Shown here: positions 884 through 6,985 of the stretch, piece after piece | How the letters are laid out: each line of letters begins with the position of its first letter | Position numbering within the stretch: position 1 is the stretch's first letter | DNA from: a virus | Taxonomy: Duplodnaviria; Heunggongvirae; Uroviricota; Caudoviricetes | Virus record (IMG/VR): IMGVR_UViG_2698536401_000005 | Length of the DNA: 7,154 nucleotides | Reading direction: 5' to 3' (one strand) | Position numbers and translations under genes: made by a program | The notes under the pieces: generated by a model | Database searches by the model: none | Told to the model about the DNA's origin: nothing | The model's input: the letters and a program-made list of their open reading frames with translations, nothing else

Positions 884-1155
884 GTATTCGTATCGAAATT
901 GGCGAACGTTATGTTGTTACCAGTGACAGCTTTCAGTTTATTCTCCACGAGAAAAAGAGAGCGGAAAGCGGTAAAAACGCCGGTCAGGAATGGCTGGCGG
1001 TGGTTGGTTATTACCCGAAATTAAGCCAGCTCGTTTCCGGCCTGATGCATCACGATATTCTGACCGGAAGCGCAAAATCTTTTGCCGATTTAAACGCGCA
1101 GGTTGAGCAACTCAGCAGGCGTTGTTCAGAGGCTTTTGGCTCATATGGACGTTAA
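880..1155 (+). CDS. Small early-operon hypothetical protein (91 aa) immediately upstream of gene A
   Basis: ATG at 880 overlaps the upstream stop (ATGA); stop TAA at 1153-1155 overlaps the start region of the long replication ORF. No motif recognised. Confidence 0.5.
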   Translation: MSIRIEIGERYVVTSDSFQFILHEKKRAESGKNAGQEWLAVVGYYPKLSQLVSGLMHHDILTGSAKSFADLNAQVEQLSRRCSEAFGSYGR

Positions 1156-3235
1156 AGCCTCCGGGCGTTTTGTCCCTCCGTCAGCATTTGCCGCAGGCAC
1201 CGGTAAGGCGTTTACCGGTGCTTATGCATGGAACGCGCCACGCGAGGCTGTCGGGCGCGAAAGACCTCTTACACGTGACGAGATGCGTCAGGTGCAAGGT
1301 GTTTTATCCACGATTAATCGCCTGCCTTATTTTTTGCGCTCGCTGTTTACTTCACGCTATGACTACATCCGGCGCAATAAAAGCCCGGTGCACGGGTTTT
1401 ATTTCCTCACATCCACTTTTCAGCGTCGTTTATGGCCGCGCATTGAGCGCGTGAATCAGCGCCATGAAATGAACACCGACGCGTCGTTGCTGTTTCTGGC
1501 AGAGCGCGACCAGTATGCGCGCCTGCCGGGGATGAATGACAAGGAGCTGAAAAAGTTTGCCGCCCGTATCTCATCACAGCTTTTCATGATGTATGAGGAA
1601 CTCTGCGATGCCTGGGTGGATGCGCATGGCGANNNNNNNNNNNNNNNNNNNNNNNNNNNNNNNNNNNNNNNNNNNNNNNNNNNNNNNNNNNNNNNNNNNN
1701 NNNNNNNNNNNNNNNNNNNNNNNNNNNNNNNNNNNNNNNNNNNNNNNNNNNNNNNNTTTCTTAAATCGTGTGACCTTGAAAACAGGGAAACCGGCGAACG
1801 CATCGACCTTATCAGTAAGGTGATGGGCAGTATTTCTAATCCTGAAATTCGCCGGATGGAGCTGATGAACACCATTGCCGGTATTGAGCGTTACGCCGCC
1901 GCAGAGGGTGATGTGGGGATGTTTATCACGCTGACCGCGCCGTCAAAGTATCACCCGACTCGTCAGGTCAGAAAAGGCGAAAGTAAAACCGTTCAGCTTA
2001 ATCACGGCTGGAACGATGAGGCATTTAATCCAAAGGATGCGCAGCGTTATCTCTGCCGCATCTGGAGCCTGATGCGCACGGCATTCAAGGATAATGATTT
2101 ACAGGTCTACGGTTTGCGTGTCGTCGAGCCACACCACGACGGAACGCCGCACTGGCATATGATGCTTTTTTGTAATCCACGCCAGCGTAACCAGATTATC
2201 GAAATCATGCGTCGCTATGCGCTCAAAGAGGATGGTGACGAAAGAGGAGCCGCGCGAAACCGTTTTCAGGCAAAACACCTTAACCGGGGCGGTGCTGCGG
2301 GATATATCGCAAAATACATCTCAAAAAATATCGACGGCTATGCACTGGATGGTCAGCTCGATAACGATACCGGCAGGCCGCTGAAAGACACTGCAGCGGC
2401 TGTTACCGCATGGGCGTCAACGTGGCGCATCCCGCAATTTAAAACGGTTGGTCTGCCGACAATGGGGGCTTACCGTGAACTACGCAAATTGCCTCGCGGC
2501 GTCAGCATTGCTGATGAGTTTGACGAGCGCGTCGAGGCTGCACGCGCCGCTGCAGACAGTGGTGATTTTGCGTTGTATATCAGCGCGCAGGGCGGGGCAA
2601 ATGTCCCGCGCGATTGTCAGACTGTCAGGGTCGCCCGTAGCCCGTCGGATGACGTTAACGAGTACGAGGAAGAAGTCGAGAGAGTGGTCGGCATTTACGC
2701 GCCGCATCTCGGCGCGCGTCATATTCATATCACCAGAACGACGGACTGGCGCATTGTGCCGAAAGTGCCGGTCGTTGAGCCTTTGACTTTAAAAAGCGGC
2801 ATCGCCGCGCCTCGGAGTCCTGTCAATAACTGTGGAAAGCTCACCGGCGGTAATACTTCGTTACCGGCTCCCACGCCTTCTGAACACGCCGCAGCCGTGC
2901 TTAATCTGGCTGATGACGGTGTTATCGAATGGAATGACCCGGATGTCGTGAGGGCGCTCAGGGGCGCATTAAAACACGGGCTGAGAACGCCAAATCGTCA
3001 ACAAAGAAACGGAAGCCCGTTAAAACCGCATGAAATTGCACCATCGGCCAGACTGAGCCGGTCTGAACGATTGCAAATCACCCGTATCCGCGTTGACCTT
3101 GCTCAGAACGGTATCAGGCCGCAGCGATGGGAGCTTGAGGCGCTGGCGCGTGGCGCGACCGTAAATTATGACGGGAAAAAATTCACGTATCCGGTCGCTG
3201 ATGAGTGGCCGGGATTCTGGCATCAATTTGAGTAA
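1145..3235 (+). CDS. A: Rolling-circle replication initiation endonuclease, P2 gpA family (HUH superfamily); interrupted by an N-run
   Basis: Long ORF with an H-W-H (HUH) metal-binding motif at nt 2150-2158 (GTPHWHMMLF) and a paired-tyrosine motif YIAKYISK (Y at 2303-2305 and 2315-2317), the Y-x3-Y arrangement of phiX174/P2 A-type initiators. First ATG is at 1145; the ORF track's start at 1103 is a TTG. Stop TAA at 3233-3235. The frame is preserved across the N-run. Confidence 0.88.
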   Translation: MDVKASGRFVPPSAFAAGTGKAFTGAYAWNAPREAVGRERPLTRDEMRQVQGVLSTINRLPYFLRSLFTSRYDYIRRNKSPVHGFYFLTSTFQRRLWPRIERVNQRHEMNTDASLLFLAERDQYARLPGMNDKELKKFAARISSQLFMMYEELCDAWVDAHGXXXXXXXXXXXXXXXXXXXXXXXXXXXXXXXXXXXXXXXXXXFLKSCDLENRETGERIDLISKVMGSISNPEIRRMELMNTIAGIERYAAAEGDVGMFITLTAPSKYHPTRQVRKGESKTVQLNHGWNDEAFNPKDAQRYLCRIWSLMRTAFKDNDLQVYGLRVVEPHHDGTPHWHMMLFCNPRQRNQIIEIMRRYALKEDGDERGAARNRFQAKHLNRGGAAGYIAKYISKNIDGYALDGQLDNDTGRPLKDTAAAVTAWASTWRIPQFKTVGLPTMGAYRELRKLPRGVSIADEFDERVEAARAAADSGDFALYISAQGGANVPRDCQTVRVARSPSDDVNEYEEEVERVVGIYAPHLGARHIHITRTTDWRIVPKVPVVEPLTLKSGIAAPRSPVNNCGKLTGGNTSLPAPTPSEHAAAVLNLADDGVIEWNDPDVVRALRGALKHGLRTPNRQQRNGSPLKPHEIAPSARLSRSERLQITRIRVDLAQNGIRPQRWELEALARGATVNYDGKKFTYPVADEWPGFWHQFE
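1633..1756. other. Run of 124 N (masked or unsequenced bases) inside gene A
   Basis: Literal n characters in the sequence. The A reading frame stays open and in register on both sides. Confidence 0.99.
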
Positions 3236-3325
3236 TGATCTCATCTATACAGTATTAAGCAGTTTTGACTGTAATTGATTGTTTTTTATATGGTTGCATG
3301 CATTAAATCTACGTCAATATCATTA

Positions 3326-3334
3326 TGTTATAAT
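3326..3334 (+). promoter_or_regulatory. Candidate extended -10 promoter element (TGtTATAAT) for the cargo genes
   Basis: TG at 3326-3327 and a perfect TATAAT at 3329-3334, in a very AT-rich intergenic stretch (3236-3362) about 30 nt upstream of the DUF2158-like gene's ATG. A TTGACT hexamer also lies at 3265-3270, possibly part of a second promoter. Sequence pattern only. Confidence 0.4.
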
Positions 3335-3362
3335 GCATTACTTAAAAATGTTGGAGACAAAA

Positions 3363-3554
3363 ATGTTAAAGCCTGCAGATGTTGTTTGTTTGAAAAGCGG
3401 TGGATTTAAAATGACTGTATCTGACTCTACTGAGACTCATGCTAAATGTATTTGGCATGATAAAGAAGGAGTTTTGCACGAGGAGTCATTCTCCATTGAT
3501 TTACTGGAAATAGCAGAGAGTAAAAGTGGTATGCTGTGTCGTCCACGTAAGTGA
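3363..3554 (+). CDS. Small protein (63 aa) resembling the DUF2158/YodC-like family
   Basis: GGAG at 3352-3355 sits 7 nt upstream of ATG 3363. The N-terminal pattern 'KPADVVCLKSGGFKMTV' resembles the conserved G-D-x-V-x-LKSGGP-x-MTV signature I recall for DUF2158 proteins. The ORF track's start at 3279 lacks an RBS and is probably too far upstream. Confidence 0.55.
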   Translation: MLKPADVVCLKSGGFKMTVSDSTETHAKCIWHDKEGVLHEESFSIDLLEIAESKSGMLCRPRK

Positions 3555-3581
3555 ATCACAATAAAATTCACGGGGGAAAGT

Positions 3582-4262
3582 ATGAAACAATACAGCGAAT
3601 TAGAAAACAATGTTAAGAGATTCATTGTTGAGCATGAAAAAGGGATTTCTATTGATGATATTCATCATAAGTTCCGGATGAAGGATGGTCAGAATCGCAA
3701 GATGGCAGATTATCTTATTGATAATAAAAAGATAATTTTGGAGATGAAAAGTCTTTTTTCTGACAGGGTCAAGAATGTCAATGATAAATTGAATGAGTTG
3801 GTTAAAACTGATAGTTGGCTTGCAAAAAACTGGCATGGTGCTATTCATTTAGAAGAGTTGATAAAAAGACACCCAGACTCAAAGCGATTTAGAAATGATA
3901 TAATGAACTTTGCTTATGAAAATATTAAAACAAAGGTAGTTAAAGAAGCTAATAAGCAAATAAATGCAACAAAGGATGTTTTGGGTTTAAATGACTCGAT
4001 TGGCGGATTGATTTTGTTAAATGATAATGTCTTTTCACATGAGTTTAATTATTTGTCAGATGAAATATTATATTTGCTAGGCACAAAGAGATATTCGAGT
4101 GTTGAGTTTGTGGTTTATATTGCAAAATTGATTGATAAACAGGTTGATGTTTGTGTGCTACTTGACAGTCAATCTAAAAATAAAAATTATATTGAATGGT
4201 ATATGAATAATGTTTTTTTGTTGAACTGGGCGTCTTTTAATAAATATGCAATAAAGATGTAG
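3582..4262 (+). CDS. Unrecognised 226-aa protein, AT-rich cargo gene (candidate defence-associated)
   Basis: ATG at 3582 with GGGGGAAAG just upstream; lies 27 nt after the DUF2158-like gene, so probably co-transcribed. Very low GC and Lys/Asn/Ile-rich composition unlike the phage backbone. No catalytic motif recognised. Confidence 0.6.
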   Translation: MKQYSELENNVKRFIVEHEKGISIDDIHHKFRMKDGQNRKMADYLIDNKKIILEMKSLFSDRVKNVNDKLNELVKTDSWLAKNWHGAIHLEELIKRHPDSKRFRNDIMNFAYENIKTKVVKEANKQINATKDVLGLNDSIGGLILLNDNVFSHEFNYLSDEILYLLGTKRYSSVEFVVYIAKLIDKQVDVCVLLDSQSKNKNYIEWYMNNVFLLNWASFNKYAIKM

Positions 4263-4511
4263 TGGTGTGGATGGATATGAAATGAGTCAACCAAGATGCA
4301 CCTTGGTCAGTAATCTCATGTGAGATACCACATATAACACCAAAAGTGTCAGGTTGATGGCCATTGTTCACCGTTTACAGCAGATTATGGTCAACGAAAA
4401 TCTGACGCCCGATGAGCTAGTCGGGTGTGCCGAAATAGTCAGGGATAATTACGAACAGCTTAACTATATCGGTCAGTCCAGCCTTGCGCCGCCACCACGC
4501 AGACGATAGAG

Positions 4512-4554
4512 AACCCCGCCAGCAATGAAACATGTTTTCAGTGCTGGCGGGGTT
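4512..4554. terminator. Near-perfect 43-bp palindromic hairpin between convergent genes (candidate bidirectional terminator)
   Basis: Arms aaccccgccagca (4512-4524) and tgctggcggggtt (4542-4554) are exact reverse complements (13 bp). The loop contains a second palindrome aaacatgttt (4528-4537). It lies ~30 nt past the stop of the minus-strand 313-aa gene and directly after the small plus-strand ORF ending at 4509. No clean U-tract on the + side; a pyrimidine-rich tract follows on the - side. Confidence 0.5.
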
Positions 4555-4582
4555 GAACAACGAACGAAGTGAGGCGTTAGCA

Positions 4583-5524
4583 TTAAGTTAATTTTAATGA
4601 ATGGTACTCTCGTGAGTTGACCGAAGATTTGAGATAACCGCAATCATTAACCGACAGTATTGCCGCTAATAGGCGACAAACGAGTTTCTGCATTTGCAGT
4701 AATATATCGTTACCATATTGATTGTTGTTAACACTGGAAAAACCAAGTGGTTGGCCAAAAAAAATAGCCTCATGAAAATTATCATTGCGGATGCCAGAAA
4801 TGTTTTTTTTGCCTGATACCCATGTGGGGATTGATAACCCATAAATTCTGCACATCCACTTTAATCGCTTGGAATGATTTGGCTGGGTTTTATCAGGAGC
4901 CTTGTCATGCTCAGCCCACGATAAAGCAAAGCAACCATCAAGTGCCATGTAAAGGTACTGGAATTTTTCAAAAGGAAGGTATTGTGGGTTTTGAGATAAG
5001 AATAGCGCATGCACCACTGCCGCAATTCTTTTGGGGGAGTGCGCATCCTTTTGTTTGTTAGTTATATAATTAAGAGCCAGTTCTATGACTTCTTTTTCAG
5101 AGCATCCAACGAGAATAAAATCGGTTAACTTAGTGGGCTTGATAGTGGTTGCATCAAGAAAACCAGCGTCAGTGGTTGTCAATCTTATACCCTTGAAAAA
5201 AGAGAGGCACCACACAACAAAGTTGAGAGTTTCTAACGAGGATGTGTTTTTTAATTTTAGTGTGTGCGTTTTGGGCATGCCGAATACTCGGTAACTATAA
5301 GGCATTGTGCATGAGTCACCATTAAGGTTATATACCTTTCGATTCCCAGGGTATATCCAACCATTAACAACGTTTTTATCATTGTTAATACGTTCCACTT
5401 TCTCAATAAGACCGGGTAAAGTACGCAAAGAAAATTGTTCAGTCTCAATGTTAACTTCTACTGGATAGTATCCAAACTCCGAAATAATCTCATTTGGTTG
5501 CTGTTCGTCAACTTCGCCTTGCAT
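4583..5524 (-). CDS. Unrecognised 313-aa protein with a C-terminal R-N-x3-H (HEPN-like) motif; candidate abortive-infection/defence effector
   Basis: ATG at 5524-5522 (minus strand) preceded by GGAGAAAG; stop at 4585-4583. AT-rich like the other cargo genes. Residues R246-N-D-N-F-H251 (nt 4772-4789) fit the HEPN RNase signature R-[N/Q/H]-x3-H within a predicted helical C-terminal half. The family call rests on this single motif plus context. Confidence 0.6.
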   Translation of the reverse strand: MQGEVDEQQPNEIISEFGYYPVEVNIETEQFSLRTLPGLIEKVERINNDKNVVNGWIYPGNRKVYNLNGDSCTMPYSYRVFGMPKTHTLKLKNTSSLETLNFVVWCLSFFKGIRLTTTDAGFLDATTIKPTKLTDFILVGCSEKEVIELALNYITNKQKDAHSPKRIAAVVHALFLSQNPQYLPFEKFQYLYMALDGCFALSWAEHDKAPDKTQPNHSKRLKWMCRIYGLSIPTWVSGKKNISGIRNDNFHEAIFFGQPLGFSSVNNNQYGNDILLQMQKLVCRLLAAILSVNDCGYLKSSVNSREYHSLKLT

Positions 5525-5762
5525 AACTTTCTCCGTTCAAAAACAGGCACGATAATTCTCGTAAGCCTATCATGTTCGCAAAGTATCCATACCTGTGGAT
5601 TTTGTAAATTTAAGTTGGTTTGTCATTAAATAAGCCGTTGCATGCAACAAGTGAATGTTTTTGCATGCGTCGGGGATGTCCGTTCAGGCTGCGTGCGGTC
5701 AGGACTGGTGCGGATCCATAGTATCTATGCAACTGCATTAAAACCGCCCCATGAAGCGGGCG

Positions 5763-5781
5763 GGCGAGGCGGGGAAAGCAC
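5763..5781 (+). other. cos site: 19-nt cohesive-end sequence of P2-type phages (GGCGAGGCGGGGAAAGCAC)
   Basis: Exact 19/19 match to the P2 cohesive-end sequence as I recall it. It sits in a GC-rich non-coding stretch between the cargo island and the end of portal gene Q, which is where cos lies in P2. Confidence 0.7.
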
Positions 5782-5923
5782 TGCGCGCTGGCGGTGGTGC
5801 TGATTTTATTTTTTCAGCGTCTGAGCGCGTCGTGAAGGCGTTTACTTGGCCTGCTGGGGCGTTGGTGTGTCTGCGGGATTTTTTGTGCGGTGATGAGCGT
5901 GTGAGGGCGTGATGACGGGGTGT

Positions 5924-5945
5924 AAAAAAGCCGCCCGCAGGCGGC
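5924..5945 (-). terminator. Candidate intrinsic terminator downstream of portal gene Q
   Basis: On the minus strand: GC stem gccgcc/ggcggc (5930-5935 and 5940-5945) with loop cgca, followed by a 6-U tract (plus-strand A-run 5924-5929), beginning 6 nt after the Q stop codon. Confidence 0.5.
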
Positions 5946-5950
5946 GATGT

Positions 5951-6985
5951 TCAGCCGTTGTCAGTGTCCAGTGAGTAGTTTTTAAAGCGGATGACCTCCT
6001 GACCGAGCCAGCCGTTTATTTCCCGAATCCTGTCCTGTAACGGGATAAGCTCATTGCGGACAAAGACCTTTGCCACTTTCTCAATATCACCCAGCGACCC
6101 GACGTTCTCCGGCTTGCCGCCCATCAACTGAAAGGGGATGCGGTGCGCGTCCAGCAGGTCAGCGGCGCTGGCTTTTTTGATATTAAAAAAATCGTCCTTC
6201 GTCGCCACTTCACTGAGCGGGATAATTTTAATGCCGTCGGCTTTCCCCTGTGGTGCATAGAGAAACAGATTTTTAAAGTTGTTGCGGCCTTTCGACTTCA
6301 CCATGTTTTCGCGGAGCATTTCGATATCGTTGCGATCCTGCACGGCATCAGTGACGTACATGATGTATCCGGCATGTGCGCCGTTTTCGTAATACTTGCG
6401 GCGGAACAGCGTGGCCGACTCATTCAGCCAGGCAGAGTTAAGGGCGCTGAGATATTCCGGCAGGCCGTACAGCTCCTGATTAATATCCGGCTCCAGCAGG
6501 TGAAACACGGAGCCGGGCGCGAAGGCTGTCGGCTCGTTGAAGGACGGCACCCACCAGTAAATATCCTCTTCCACACCACGGCGGGTATATTTTTCCGGTG
6601 AGGTTTCCAGTCTGATGACCTTACCGGTGGTGCTGTAACGCTTTTCCAGAAATGCATTACCAAATACCAGAAAATCCAGCACAAAGCGGCTGAAATCCTG
6701 CTGGGAAAGCCATGGATGCGGGATAAATGTCGAGGCCAGAATATTACGTTTGACGTAAATCGGTGAGCTGTGATGCACGGCAGCACGCAGGCTTTTTGCC
6801 AGACCGGTAAAGCTGACCGGCGGCTCATACCATCTGCCGTTACTGATGCATTCGACGTAATCCAGAATGTCACGGCGGTCGAGCACCGGCACCGGCTCAC
6901 CAAAGGTGAATGCCTCCATTTTCGGGGCGCTGGCAGTCATTTTTTTTGCCGCAGGTTGCGGTGTTTTCCCTTTTTTCTTGCTCAT
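5951..6985 (-). CDS. Q: Phage portal protein, P2 gpQ family (344 aa)
   Basis: 344-aa ORF, the same length as P2 gpQ, positioned next to cos and immediately downstream of the terminase gene on the same strand. Its start ATG (6985-6983) overlaps the upstream stop as TGATG. Identification is by recollection of the family and by synteny. Confidence 0.85.
   Translation of the reverse strand: MSKKKGKTPQPAAKKMTASAPKMEAFTFGEPVPVLDRRDILDYVECISNGRWYEPPVSFTGLAKSLRAAVHHSSPIYVKRNILASTFIPHPWLSQQDFSRFVLDFLVFGNAFLEKRYSTTGKVIRLETSPEKYTRRGVEEDIYWWVPSFNEPTAFAPGSVFHLLEPDINQELYGLPEYLSALNSAWLNESATLFRRKYYENGAHAGYIMYVTDAVQDRNDIEMLRENMVKSKGRNNFKNLFLYAPQGKADGIKIIPLSEVATKDDFFNIKKASAADLLDAHRIPFQLMGGKPENVGSLGDIEKVAKVFVRNELIPLQDRIREINGWLGQEVIRFKNYSLDTDNG

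Follow-up and report, generated by a model that had tools for sequence, protein, structure and literature searches.

Several described proteins couple a HEPN domain to defence or toxicity. ApeA provides defence from a single gene. Its non-HEPN domains are packed on a C-terminal split HEPN domain with insertions, and a conserved pocket for a ligand, apart from the active site, switches on its cleavage of tRNA (bioRxiv 10.64898/2026.01.26.701840). DARNA, an abortive anticodon nuclease, is a single protein in which a sensor domain is fused to a HEPN tRNase whose activator is single-stranded DNA bound by phage SSB (bioRxiv 10.64898/2026.02.22.705581). In HEPN-MNT systems the HepT toxin is paired with an MNT protein and contains the motif RX4HXY, while the RNase LS toxins RnlA and LsoA are defined by similarity to the RnlA domains together with a downstream RnlB-type antitoxin. 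In phage P2 itself, tin and old occupy the hotspot between the genes for the replication endonuclease gpA and for gpQ, the portal protein, and this hotspot has been shown to be a reservoir of anti-phage systems (Rousset et al. 2022). Old is expressed from the prophage and excludes other phages; the title of a 2026 preprint calls it an abortive tRNase. Here we analyse ORF313, a protein encoded in the gpA-gpQ hotspot of a 7,154-base window (the whole stretch of DNA that was analysed, IMG/VR record IMGVR_UViG_2698536401_000005), which is the early-gene end of a P2-like prophage.

We find that ORF313 probably carries a catalytically competent HEPN domain. The case is carried by a motif and its conservation, the HEPN-like fold of a predicted model, a two-domain layout, the position in the hotspot and independence of neighbouring genes. 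A full defence scenario, in which ORF313 would be an infection-activated HEPN RNase of anti-phage function, is a proposal towards which we lean slightly.

A conserved R-N-x3-H-E motif in ORF313

The features of the protein are as follows.

4583..5524, minus strand: ORF313, 313 amino acids plus stop; hotspot cargo; PHROG 5937, function unknown
4769..4789, minus strand: candidate HEPN catalytic motif R246-N-D-N-F-H251-E252; consensus R-N-x3-H-E across homologues
4586..5098, minus strand: C-terminal helical HEPN-like domain, residues 143-313, from the predicted model
5105..5497, minus strand: N-terminal alpha/beta domain, residues ~10-140, from the predicted model, with a fold that matches no recognised one

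Translation confirmed the 313-residue open reading frame that a first-pass annotation, made from the sequence alone, had proposed at 4583-5524 on the minus strand. The frame starts with ATG, and the same coding sequence is annotated in RefSeq and named 'ORF313' in GenBank AM157369. The hexapeptide RNDNFH, which the annotation had singled out as HEPN-like, was found exactly where claimed (R246-N247-D248-N249-F250-H251, nucleotides 4772-4789 of the minus strand). At the length and composition of ORF313, R-[NQH]-x3-H is expected by chance ~0.034 times and Rx4-6H ~0.72 times, and by itself the match is weak, mildly unusual at most.

It is conservation across homologues that raises the motif above chance. 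Relatives of ORF313 numbered 390 in the first search, and an exhaustive profile search gave 641 cluster representatives at 50% identity. Across 34 homologues with 45-87% identity, R246, N247, H251 and E252 never vary. When the comparison was widened to 48 homologues (down to 24% identity), the histidine was retained in 48/48, the arginine in 47/48, the asparagine in 45/48 and a glutamate or aspartate at the next position in 47/48. An R-x4-6-H motif with a polar residue after the arginine, as expected of HEPN domains, is thus conserved family-wide. A lack of such conservation was one of the outcomes that the first-pass annotation had named as speaking against a HEPN protein, and it was not seen. 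A second Rx6H in the protein (R166-H172) was rejected as a motif, its arginine not being conserved in the 48 homologues.

Predicted fold and the evidence against a HEPN assignment

An AlphaFold2 model was built with the 34-sequence alignment (mean predicted local distance difference test, pLDDT, 81; predicted template modelling score, pTM, 0.83). In this model ORF313 is predicted to form two tightly packed domains. The N-terminal ~150 residues had been proposed to be a separate domain and the C-terminal half to be helical; both proposals were borne out, with strands and helices up to ~138 and helices from 143 to 289 in the model (143-157, 163-176, 184-206, 217-228, 242-256 and 274-289). The predicted C-terminal domain has the all-alpha, up-down four-helix core of HEPN proteins, and the best structural matches include HepT toxins (PDB 7ae2, 5yep and 8xdj). 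With the caveats given below, the model provides consistent and specific evidence for a HEPN fold.

Several observations weigh against this assignment. A Foldseek search of the full ORF313 model against the PDB returned nothing significant. The motif lies near the N-terminus of the predicted helix 242-256, a helix of pLDDT only ~48-62, and confidence in the model is lowest in the region around it (mean pLDDT 62 for residues 241-250, 48 for 251-260 and 44 for 261-270). In addition, scans with Pfam, NCBIfam and PADLOC, and hhalign against RnlA and an AbiU2-like neighbour, showed no profile-level similarity to a described HEPN family, one HEPN_Apea match at E 0.15 apart. The lack of a family profile match, the negative Foldseek result and the low confidence of the motif helix would all fit a motif that is coincidental in an ordinary helical bundle, with ORF313 being no HEPN relative. 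Given how far HEPN families have diverged, a missing profile match says little, and with the motif conserved as described above we give coincidence hardly any probability. The HEPN-like interpretation is in our view supported; RNase activity we infer.

Comparison with described HEPN families

Scans of ORF313 and of the 34 and 48 homologues with Pfam, NCBIfam and PADLOC assigned no family, except for HEPN_Apea in 1/48 at E 0.15. Matches of phmmer and profile searches to PDB sequences (ribonucleotide reductase R2, rhinovirus VP2) were spurious and were discarded. PHROGs gave only 'unknown function' families for ORF313 and its homologues. With hhalign, the probability was <1% against RnlA and 0.3% against an AbiU2-like neighbour family from Sphingopyxis, the latter from an alignment that is nearly without diversity and hence uninformative. 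UniProt automatically names one homologue (A0A3A8EY04) 'Apea-like HEPN domain-containing protein', which we treat as a lead and not as a test. Our literature search found no published characterisation of ORF313, and its sequence was not found in the full Table S2 (tested systems) or in the accessible part of Table S5 of Rousset et al. 2022.

The architecture of ORF313 also differs from that of each described family. In comparison with HepT, ORF313 has no MNT neighbour, and the tyrosine of the RX4HXY motif is absent: the sequence reads H-E-A, with A253 two positions past H251. Further differences are an additional N-terminal domain of 140 residues and insertions at ~207-241 and ~257-273. No conserved neighbour and no RX4HXY motif were found, and ORF313 is not a HEPN-MNT member. 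Its likeness to ApeA lies in the single gene and in a non-HEPN domain packed on a C-terminal HEPN domain with insertions. However, ApeA has ~580 amino acids and three domains, with helical N-terminal and Mid domains, and forms decamers, whereas ORF313 has 313 amino acids and two domains. The PADLOC library presumably includes an ApeA model, and ORF313 had no PADLOC match; together with the architecture and the negligible HEPN_Apea score, this places it outside the ApeA family. DARNA resembles ORF313 as a single-protein HEPN defence with a fused sensor domain, but the order is reversed (an N-terminal HEPN domain followed by a 300-residue helical C-terminal domain, 456 amino acids in all) and there is no sequence relationship. 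ORF313 shows neither the RnlA-domain similarity nor the downstream RnlB-type antitoxin of the RnlA/LsoA toxins. Old of P2 occupies the same cos-proximal slot of the hotspot, but it is an ABC-ATPase with a TOPRIM domain and has no homology to ORF313. From the profile searches and the comparison with ApeA, DARNA, RnlA and HepT, we place ORF313 in a family of the HEPN superfamily that has no curated description, and in none of the named families.

The N-terminal domain

Among the 48 homologues, H87 and G112 of the N-terminal domain are invariant, W56, T86, R114 and D135 are nearly invariant and R79 is near-invariant. Mean information is 1.93 bits for this domain and 1.91 bits for the HEPN half. 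In close enterobacterial alleles, variation is concentrated at residues 151-170, 201-240 and 291-313, all in the HEPN half and not in the N-terminal domain. To judge from the sequences, this pattern argues for a conserved ligand-binding or catalytic pocket over a fast-evolving recogniser of phage proteins.

A domain conserved as strongly as the HEPN half, with invariant polar residues of its own, could also point to a HEPN fold that is not a nuclease. ORF313 would then be a regulator that binds a ligand or a nucleotide, and any catalysis would take place in the N-terminal domain (T86-H87, D135, R114). Non-catalytic HEPN domains do exist (Anantharaman et al. 2013, PMC3710099), but they usually lose the arginine or the histidine of the motif, while the ORF313 family retains R, N, H and E; we regard a non-nuclease as very unlikely. 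As for a catalytically competent HEPN domain, the N-terminal domain might be a new sensor or a second catalytic module that reads a conserved infection cue (such as a small molecule or a nucleic-acid feature, in place of a phage protein) and gates the HEPN domain allosterically. This is a speculative proposal, and on balance a doubtful one. If true, ORF313 would found a compact and widespread (641 clusters) class of single-protein sensor-effector immunity with a new trigger logic.

The family profile also gave weak matches to bacterial RyR domains over residues ~10-68 (~5321-5497), with 6ug5, 3nrt and 4n05 at E 0.05-0.17 and the tandem chimera 6uhi at 5.5e-4. These matches rest on a common Y-x-P...GW-x-Y pattern. 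The predicted secondary structure of residues ~10-68 is unlike that of an RyR domain, and we gave the match little weight.

ORF313 in the gpA-gpQ hotspot

The remaining features of the window are listed in order.

Upstream of gpA, in order: DUF2732, DUF5405, TraR/DksA zinc-finger and a second DUF5405 gene, followed by gpA
1103..3235, plus strand: replication endonuclease gpA, Pfam Phage_GPA E 2.4e-81; one hotspot border
3279-3554, plus strand: DUF2158 protein; cargo
3582-4262, plus strand: ORF226, 226 amino acids; cargo
4354-4509, plus strand: open reading frame of 51 amino acids; cargo
4514..4552, no strand assigned: inverted repeat, 11-bp arms CCCCGCCAGCA and TGCTGGCGGGG around a 17-nt loop, 31 nt beyond the ORF313 stop; read from the sequence
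5531..5534, minus strand: GGAG ribosome-binding site, 7-10 nt 5' of the ATG; annotated as the ORF313 ribosome-binding site in AM157369
5599..5626, minus strand: sigma-70-like promoter candidate, ATGACA, 16-nt spacer, CAAAAT, between cos and ORF313; identified solely by its match to the consensus
5763..5781, plus strand: P2/P4 cos core of 19 nt, GGCGAGGCGGGGAAAGCAC; exact, 0 mismatches, 0.01 expected by chance
5951..6985, minus strand: portal protein gpQ, Pfam Phage_portal; other hotspot border

The flanking gpA and gpQ genes and the exact cos core identify 3236-5950 as the cos-adjacent gpA-gpQ hotspot. Because the cos core separates ORF313 from the portal gene, no further gene follows ORF313 before the right cohesive end, and the same arrangement is found in Yersinia phage vB_YpM_46. 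The cargo insert has a low GC content (~0.30-0.44) compared with its flanks (~0.53). ORF313 has the characteristics of hotspot cargo: it lies between gpA and gpQ, by cos, in a segment whose content varies among related prophages. The hotspot arrangement of the window is 98-99% identical to AM157369 ('Bacteriophage P2-EC67 ORF226 and ORF313'), and the segment including ORF313 is also present, at 98-99% identity, in prophages of 27 complete E. coli genomes. An arrangement of 'DUF2158 + hypothetical + hypothetical' appears in the accessible part of Table S5 of Rousset et al. 2022.

ORF313 is transcribed against the neighbouring cargo and replication genes. The inverted repeat at 4514-4552, between the convergent 51-residue frame and ORF313, is probably a bidirectional terminator; our terminator scan missed it because of its long loop.

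The position bears on a second alternative, namely that ORF313 is an RNA-processing or anti-defence factor which benefits the phage or element, for example by trimming host or rival RNAs in the lytic cycle, and is not a defence protein. The gene is present in functional phages, and cargo that does not serve defence, such as partition systems and toxins, is likewise found in P2 hotspots. Against this, the family is also found on integrative conjugative elements and on chromosomal islands unrelated to P2, ORF313 stands in the position of old, a lysogen-expressed gene, and its transcription opposes that of the neighbouring cargo and replication genes. We consider a phage-benefit role improbable.

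A run of 124 N lies inside gpA at 1633-1756. In the closest RefSeq prophage, 189 nt more separate the upstream DUF5405 gene from the gpA stop than in the window, and the real stretch may be longer than its masked length.

Distribution and modularity of ORF313

Relatives of ORF313 occur in 93/5,426 complete E. coli genomes (~1.7%), all of them chromosomal. The ~50 P2-like loci that we compared came from E. coli and other Enterobacteriaceae, from isolated phages and from IMG/VR contigs; in every one, no gene lay closer to cos and Q than ORF313. On the gpA side, the cargo alternated between DUF2158 with ORF226, ImmA/IrrE with a 199-residue protein, a DinI-like set, DUF3850, an unnamed pair (~243-266 and 174-178 residues) and none at all (L004, L124 and L126). 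ORF226 and DUF2158 were rejected as partners of ORF313, being merely one of these alternative sets. ORF226 was found in just 27 complete E. coli genomes, the number that carries the whole segment including ORF313. Between prophages ORF226 is 98-99.7% identical, whereas the adjacent ORF313 allele is 83-100% identical; read from the sequences, this contrast indicates modular exchange. The range of alleles and the variable positions of the HEPN half suggest allele exchange or diversifying pressure on ORF313. Outside P2, the family occurs in Gamma-, Beta- and Alphaproteobacteria and a few other phyla, with a fixed two-domain architecture of ~300 residues.

No conserved partner gene or antitoxin was found beside ORF313 homologues in 77 genomes, which marks ORF313 as an autonomous single-gene module; it behaves as a self-contained mobile one. 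The same survey bears on the third alternative, in which ORF313 is not an infection sensor but a HEPN RNase toxin for element stabilisation or competition, similar to toxin-antitoxin systems and neutralised by an unlinked antitoxin or by the small convergent frame. Many HEPN proteins are toxins of such systems, the HepT matches are of this kind, and a small frame of 51-111 residues lies just downstream, convergent, in most P2 loci. Apart from the missing partner gene, however, these small frames belong to two unrelated families, are absent from L004, L124 and L126 and, being convergent with ORF313, are not co-transcribed with it; nor does an MNT-type or other antitoxin domain adjoin the homologues. 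A toxin-antitoxin role is in our estimate also improbable.

Among the neighbours outside P2 are integrases, AlpA, type IV secretion genes, transposases and structural genes of phages. Recognised defence genes are found there too: type IIG restriction-modification, Avs3, Hhe, AriA, mads and DUF4238, along with several PDC candidates, a restriction-endonuclease-N/STAND NTPase and an AbiU2-like HEPN protein. Directly 3' of the ORF313 homologue in Sphingopyxis and relatives (L034, L035, L041, L047-L054 and L069) lies a gene for 375 residues with the sequence RNKSIAH and a sub-threshold Pfam AbiU2 HEPN match (E 7.8e-4), sometimes with a gene for 283 residues in between. The RNKSIAH sequence and the AbiU2 match mean that two different HEPN-like genes are adjacent in loci of this type. 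Directly 5' of the homologue in L027, L028 and L079 (Acidovorax, Polaromonas and Hydrogenophaga) lies a gene for ~800 residues, which is met again in L033 (Variovorax). Its product combines an N-terminal restriction-endonuclease domain of HSDR_N type with a STAND/AAA NTPase domain, and it looks like a separate Avs-like defence gene.

In the window itself, DUF2158 and ORF226 (3279-4262, plus strand) form a fixed pair, which is system 63 'DUF2158' with 67 occurrences in the accessible part of Table S5B of Rousset et al. 2022. ORF226 had no match in Pfam, PADLOC or the PDB and belongs to PHROG 20483, function unknown. It occurs in 2 phage records, both of which also contain ORF313, while ORF313 often occurs without the pair. 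The pair may be a second, separate cargo module. RefSeq names the 51-residue frame (4354-4509, plus strand) 'meiotically up-regulated 80 protein', a name from fission yeast whose transfer to this frame is almost certainly spurious; at its position other P2 loci have an unrelated small frame (61-111 residues) or, in some cases, none.

Proposed mechanism

By analogy with HEPN enzymes (Anantharaman et al. 2013, PMC3710099; the ApeA and DARNA preprints), an infection-activated RNase could work as follows. The prophage would express ORF313, and two HEPN domains would pair so that R246 and H251 make up a composite RNase site that needs no metal. In the lysogen, the enzyme would be kept inactive. When a competing phage infects, a cue received via the N-terminal domain or its interface would free the RNase, which may cut tRNA or another RNA, so that translation would stop and the infection would be aborted. 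Dimerisation, RNase activity, the RNA target, the trigger and the anti-phage function are all modelled here on the behaviour of those enzymes. On its sequence and genomic setting, we regard ORF313 as a credible single-gene anti-phage candidate.

Significance

A specialist would not be surprised by a HEPN protein in a prophage defence hotspot, and it brings no new principle. The practical payoff would be modest: one more candidate for defence catalogues and for the prediction of phage host range. Should it be confirmed, ORF313 would extend the known repertoire by a compact HEPN defence encoded in a single gene and, having been missed by PADLOC and Pfam, would fill an "unknown cargo" gap in P2 hotspots. 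Its small size, its conserved non-HEPN domain and its lack of partners would make it tractable for studying how a HEPN nuclease is held in check and later activated.
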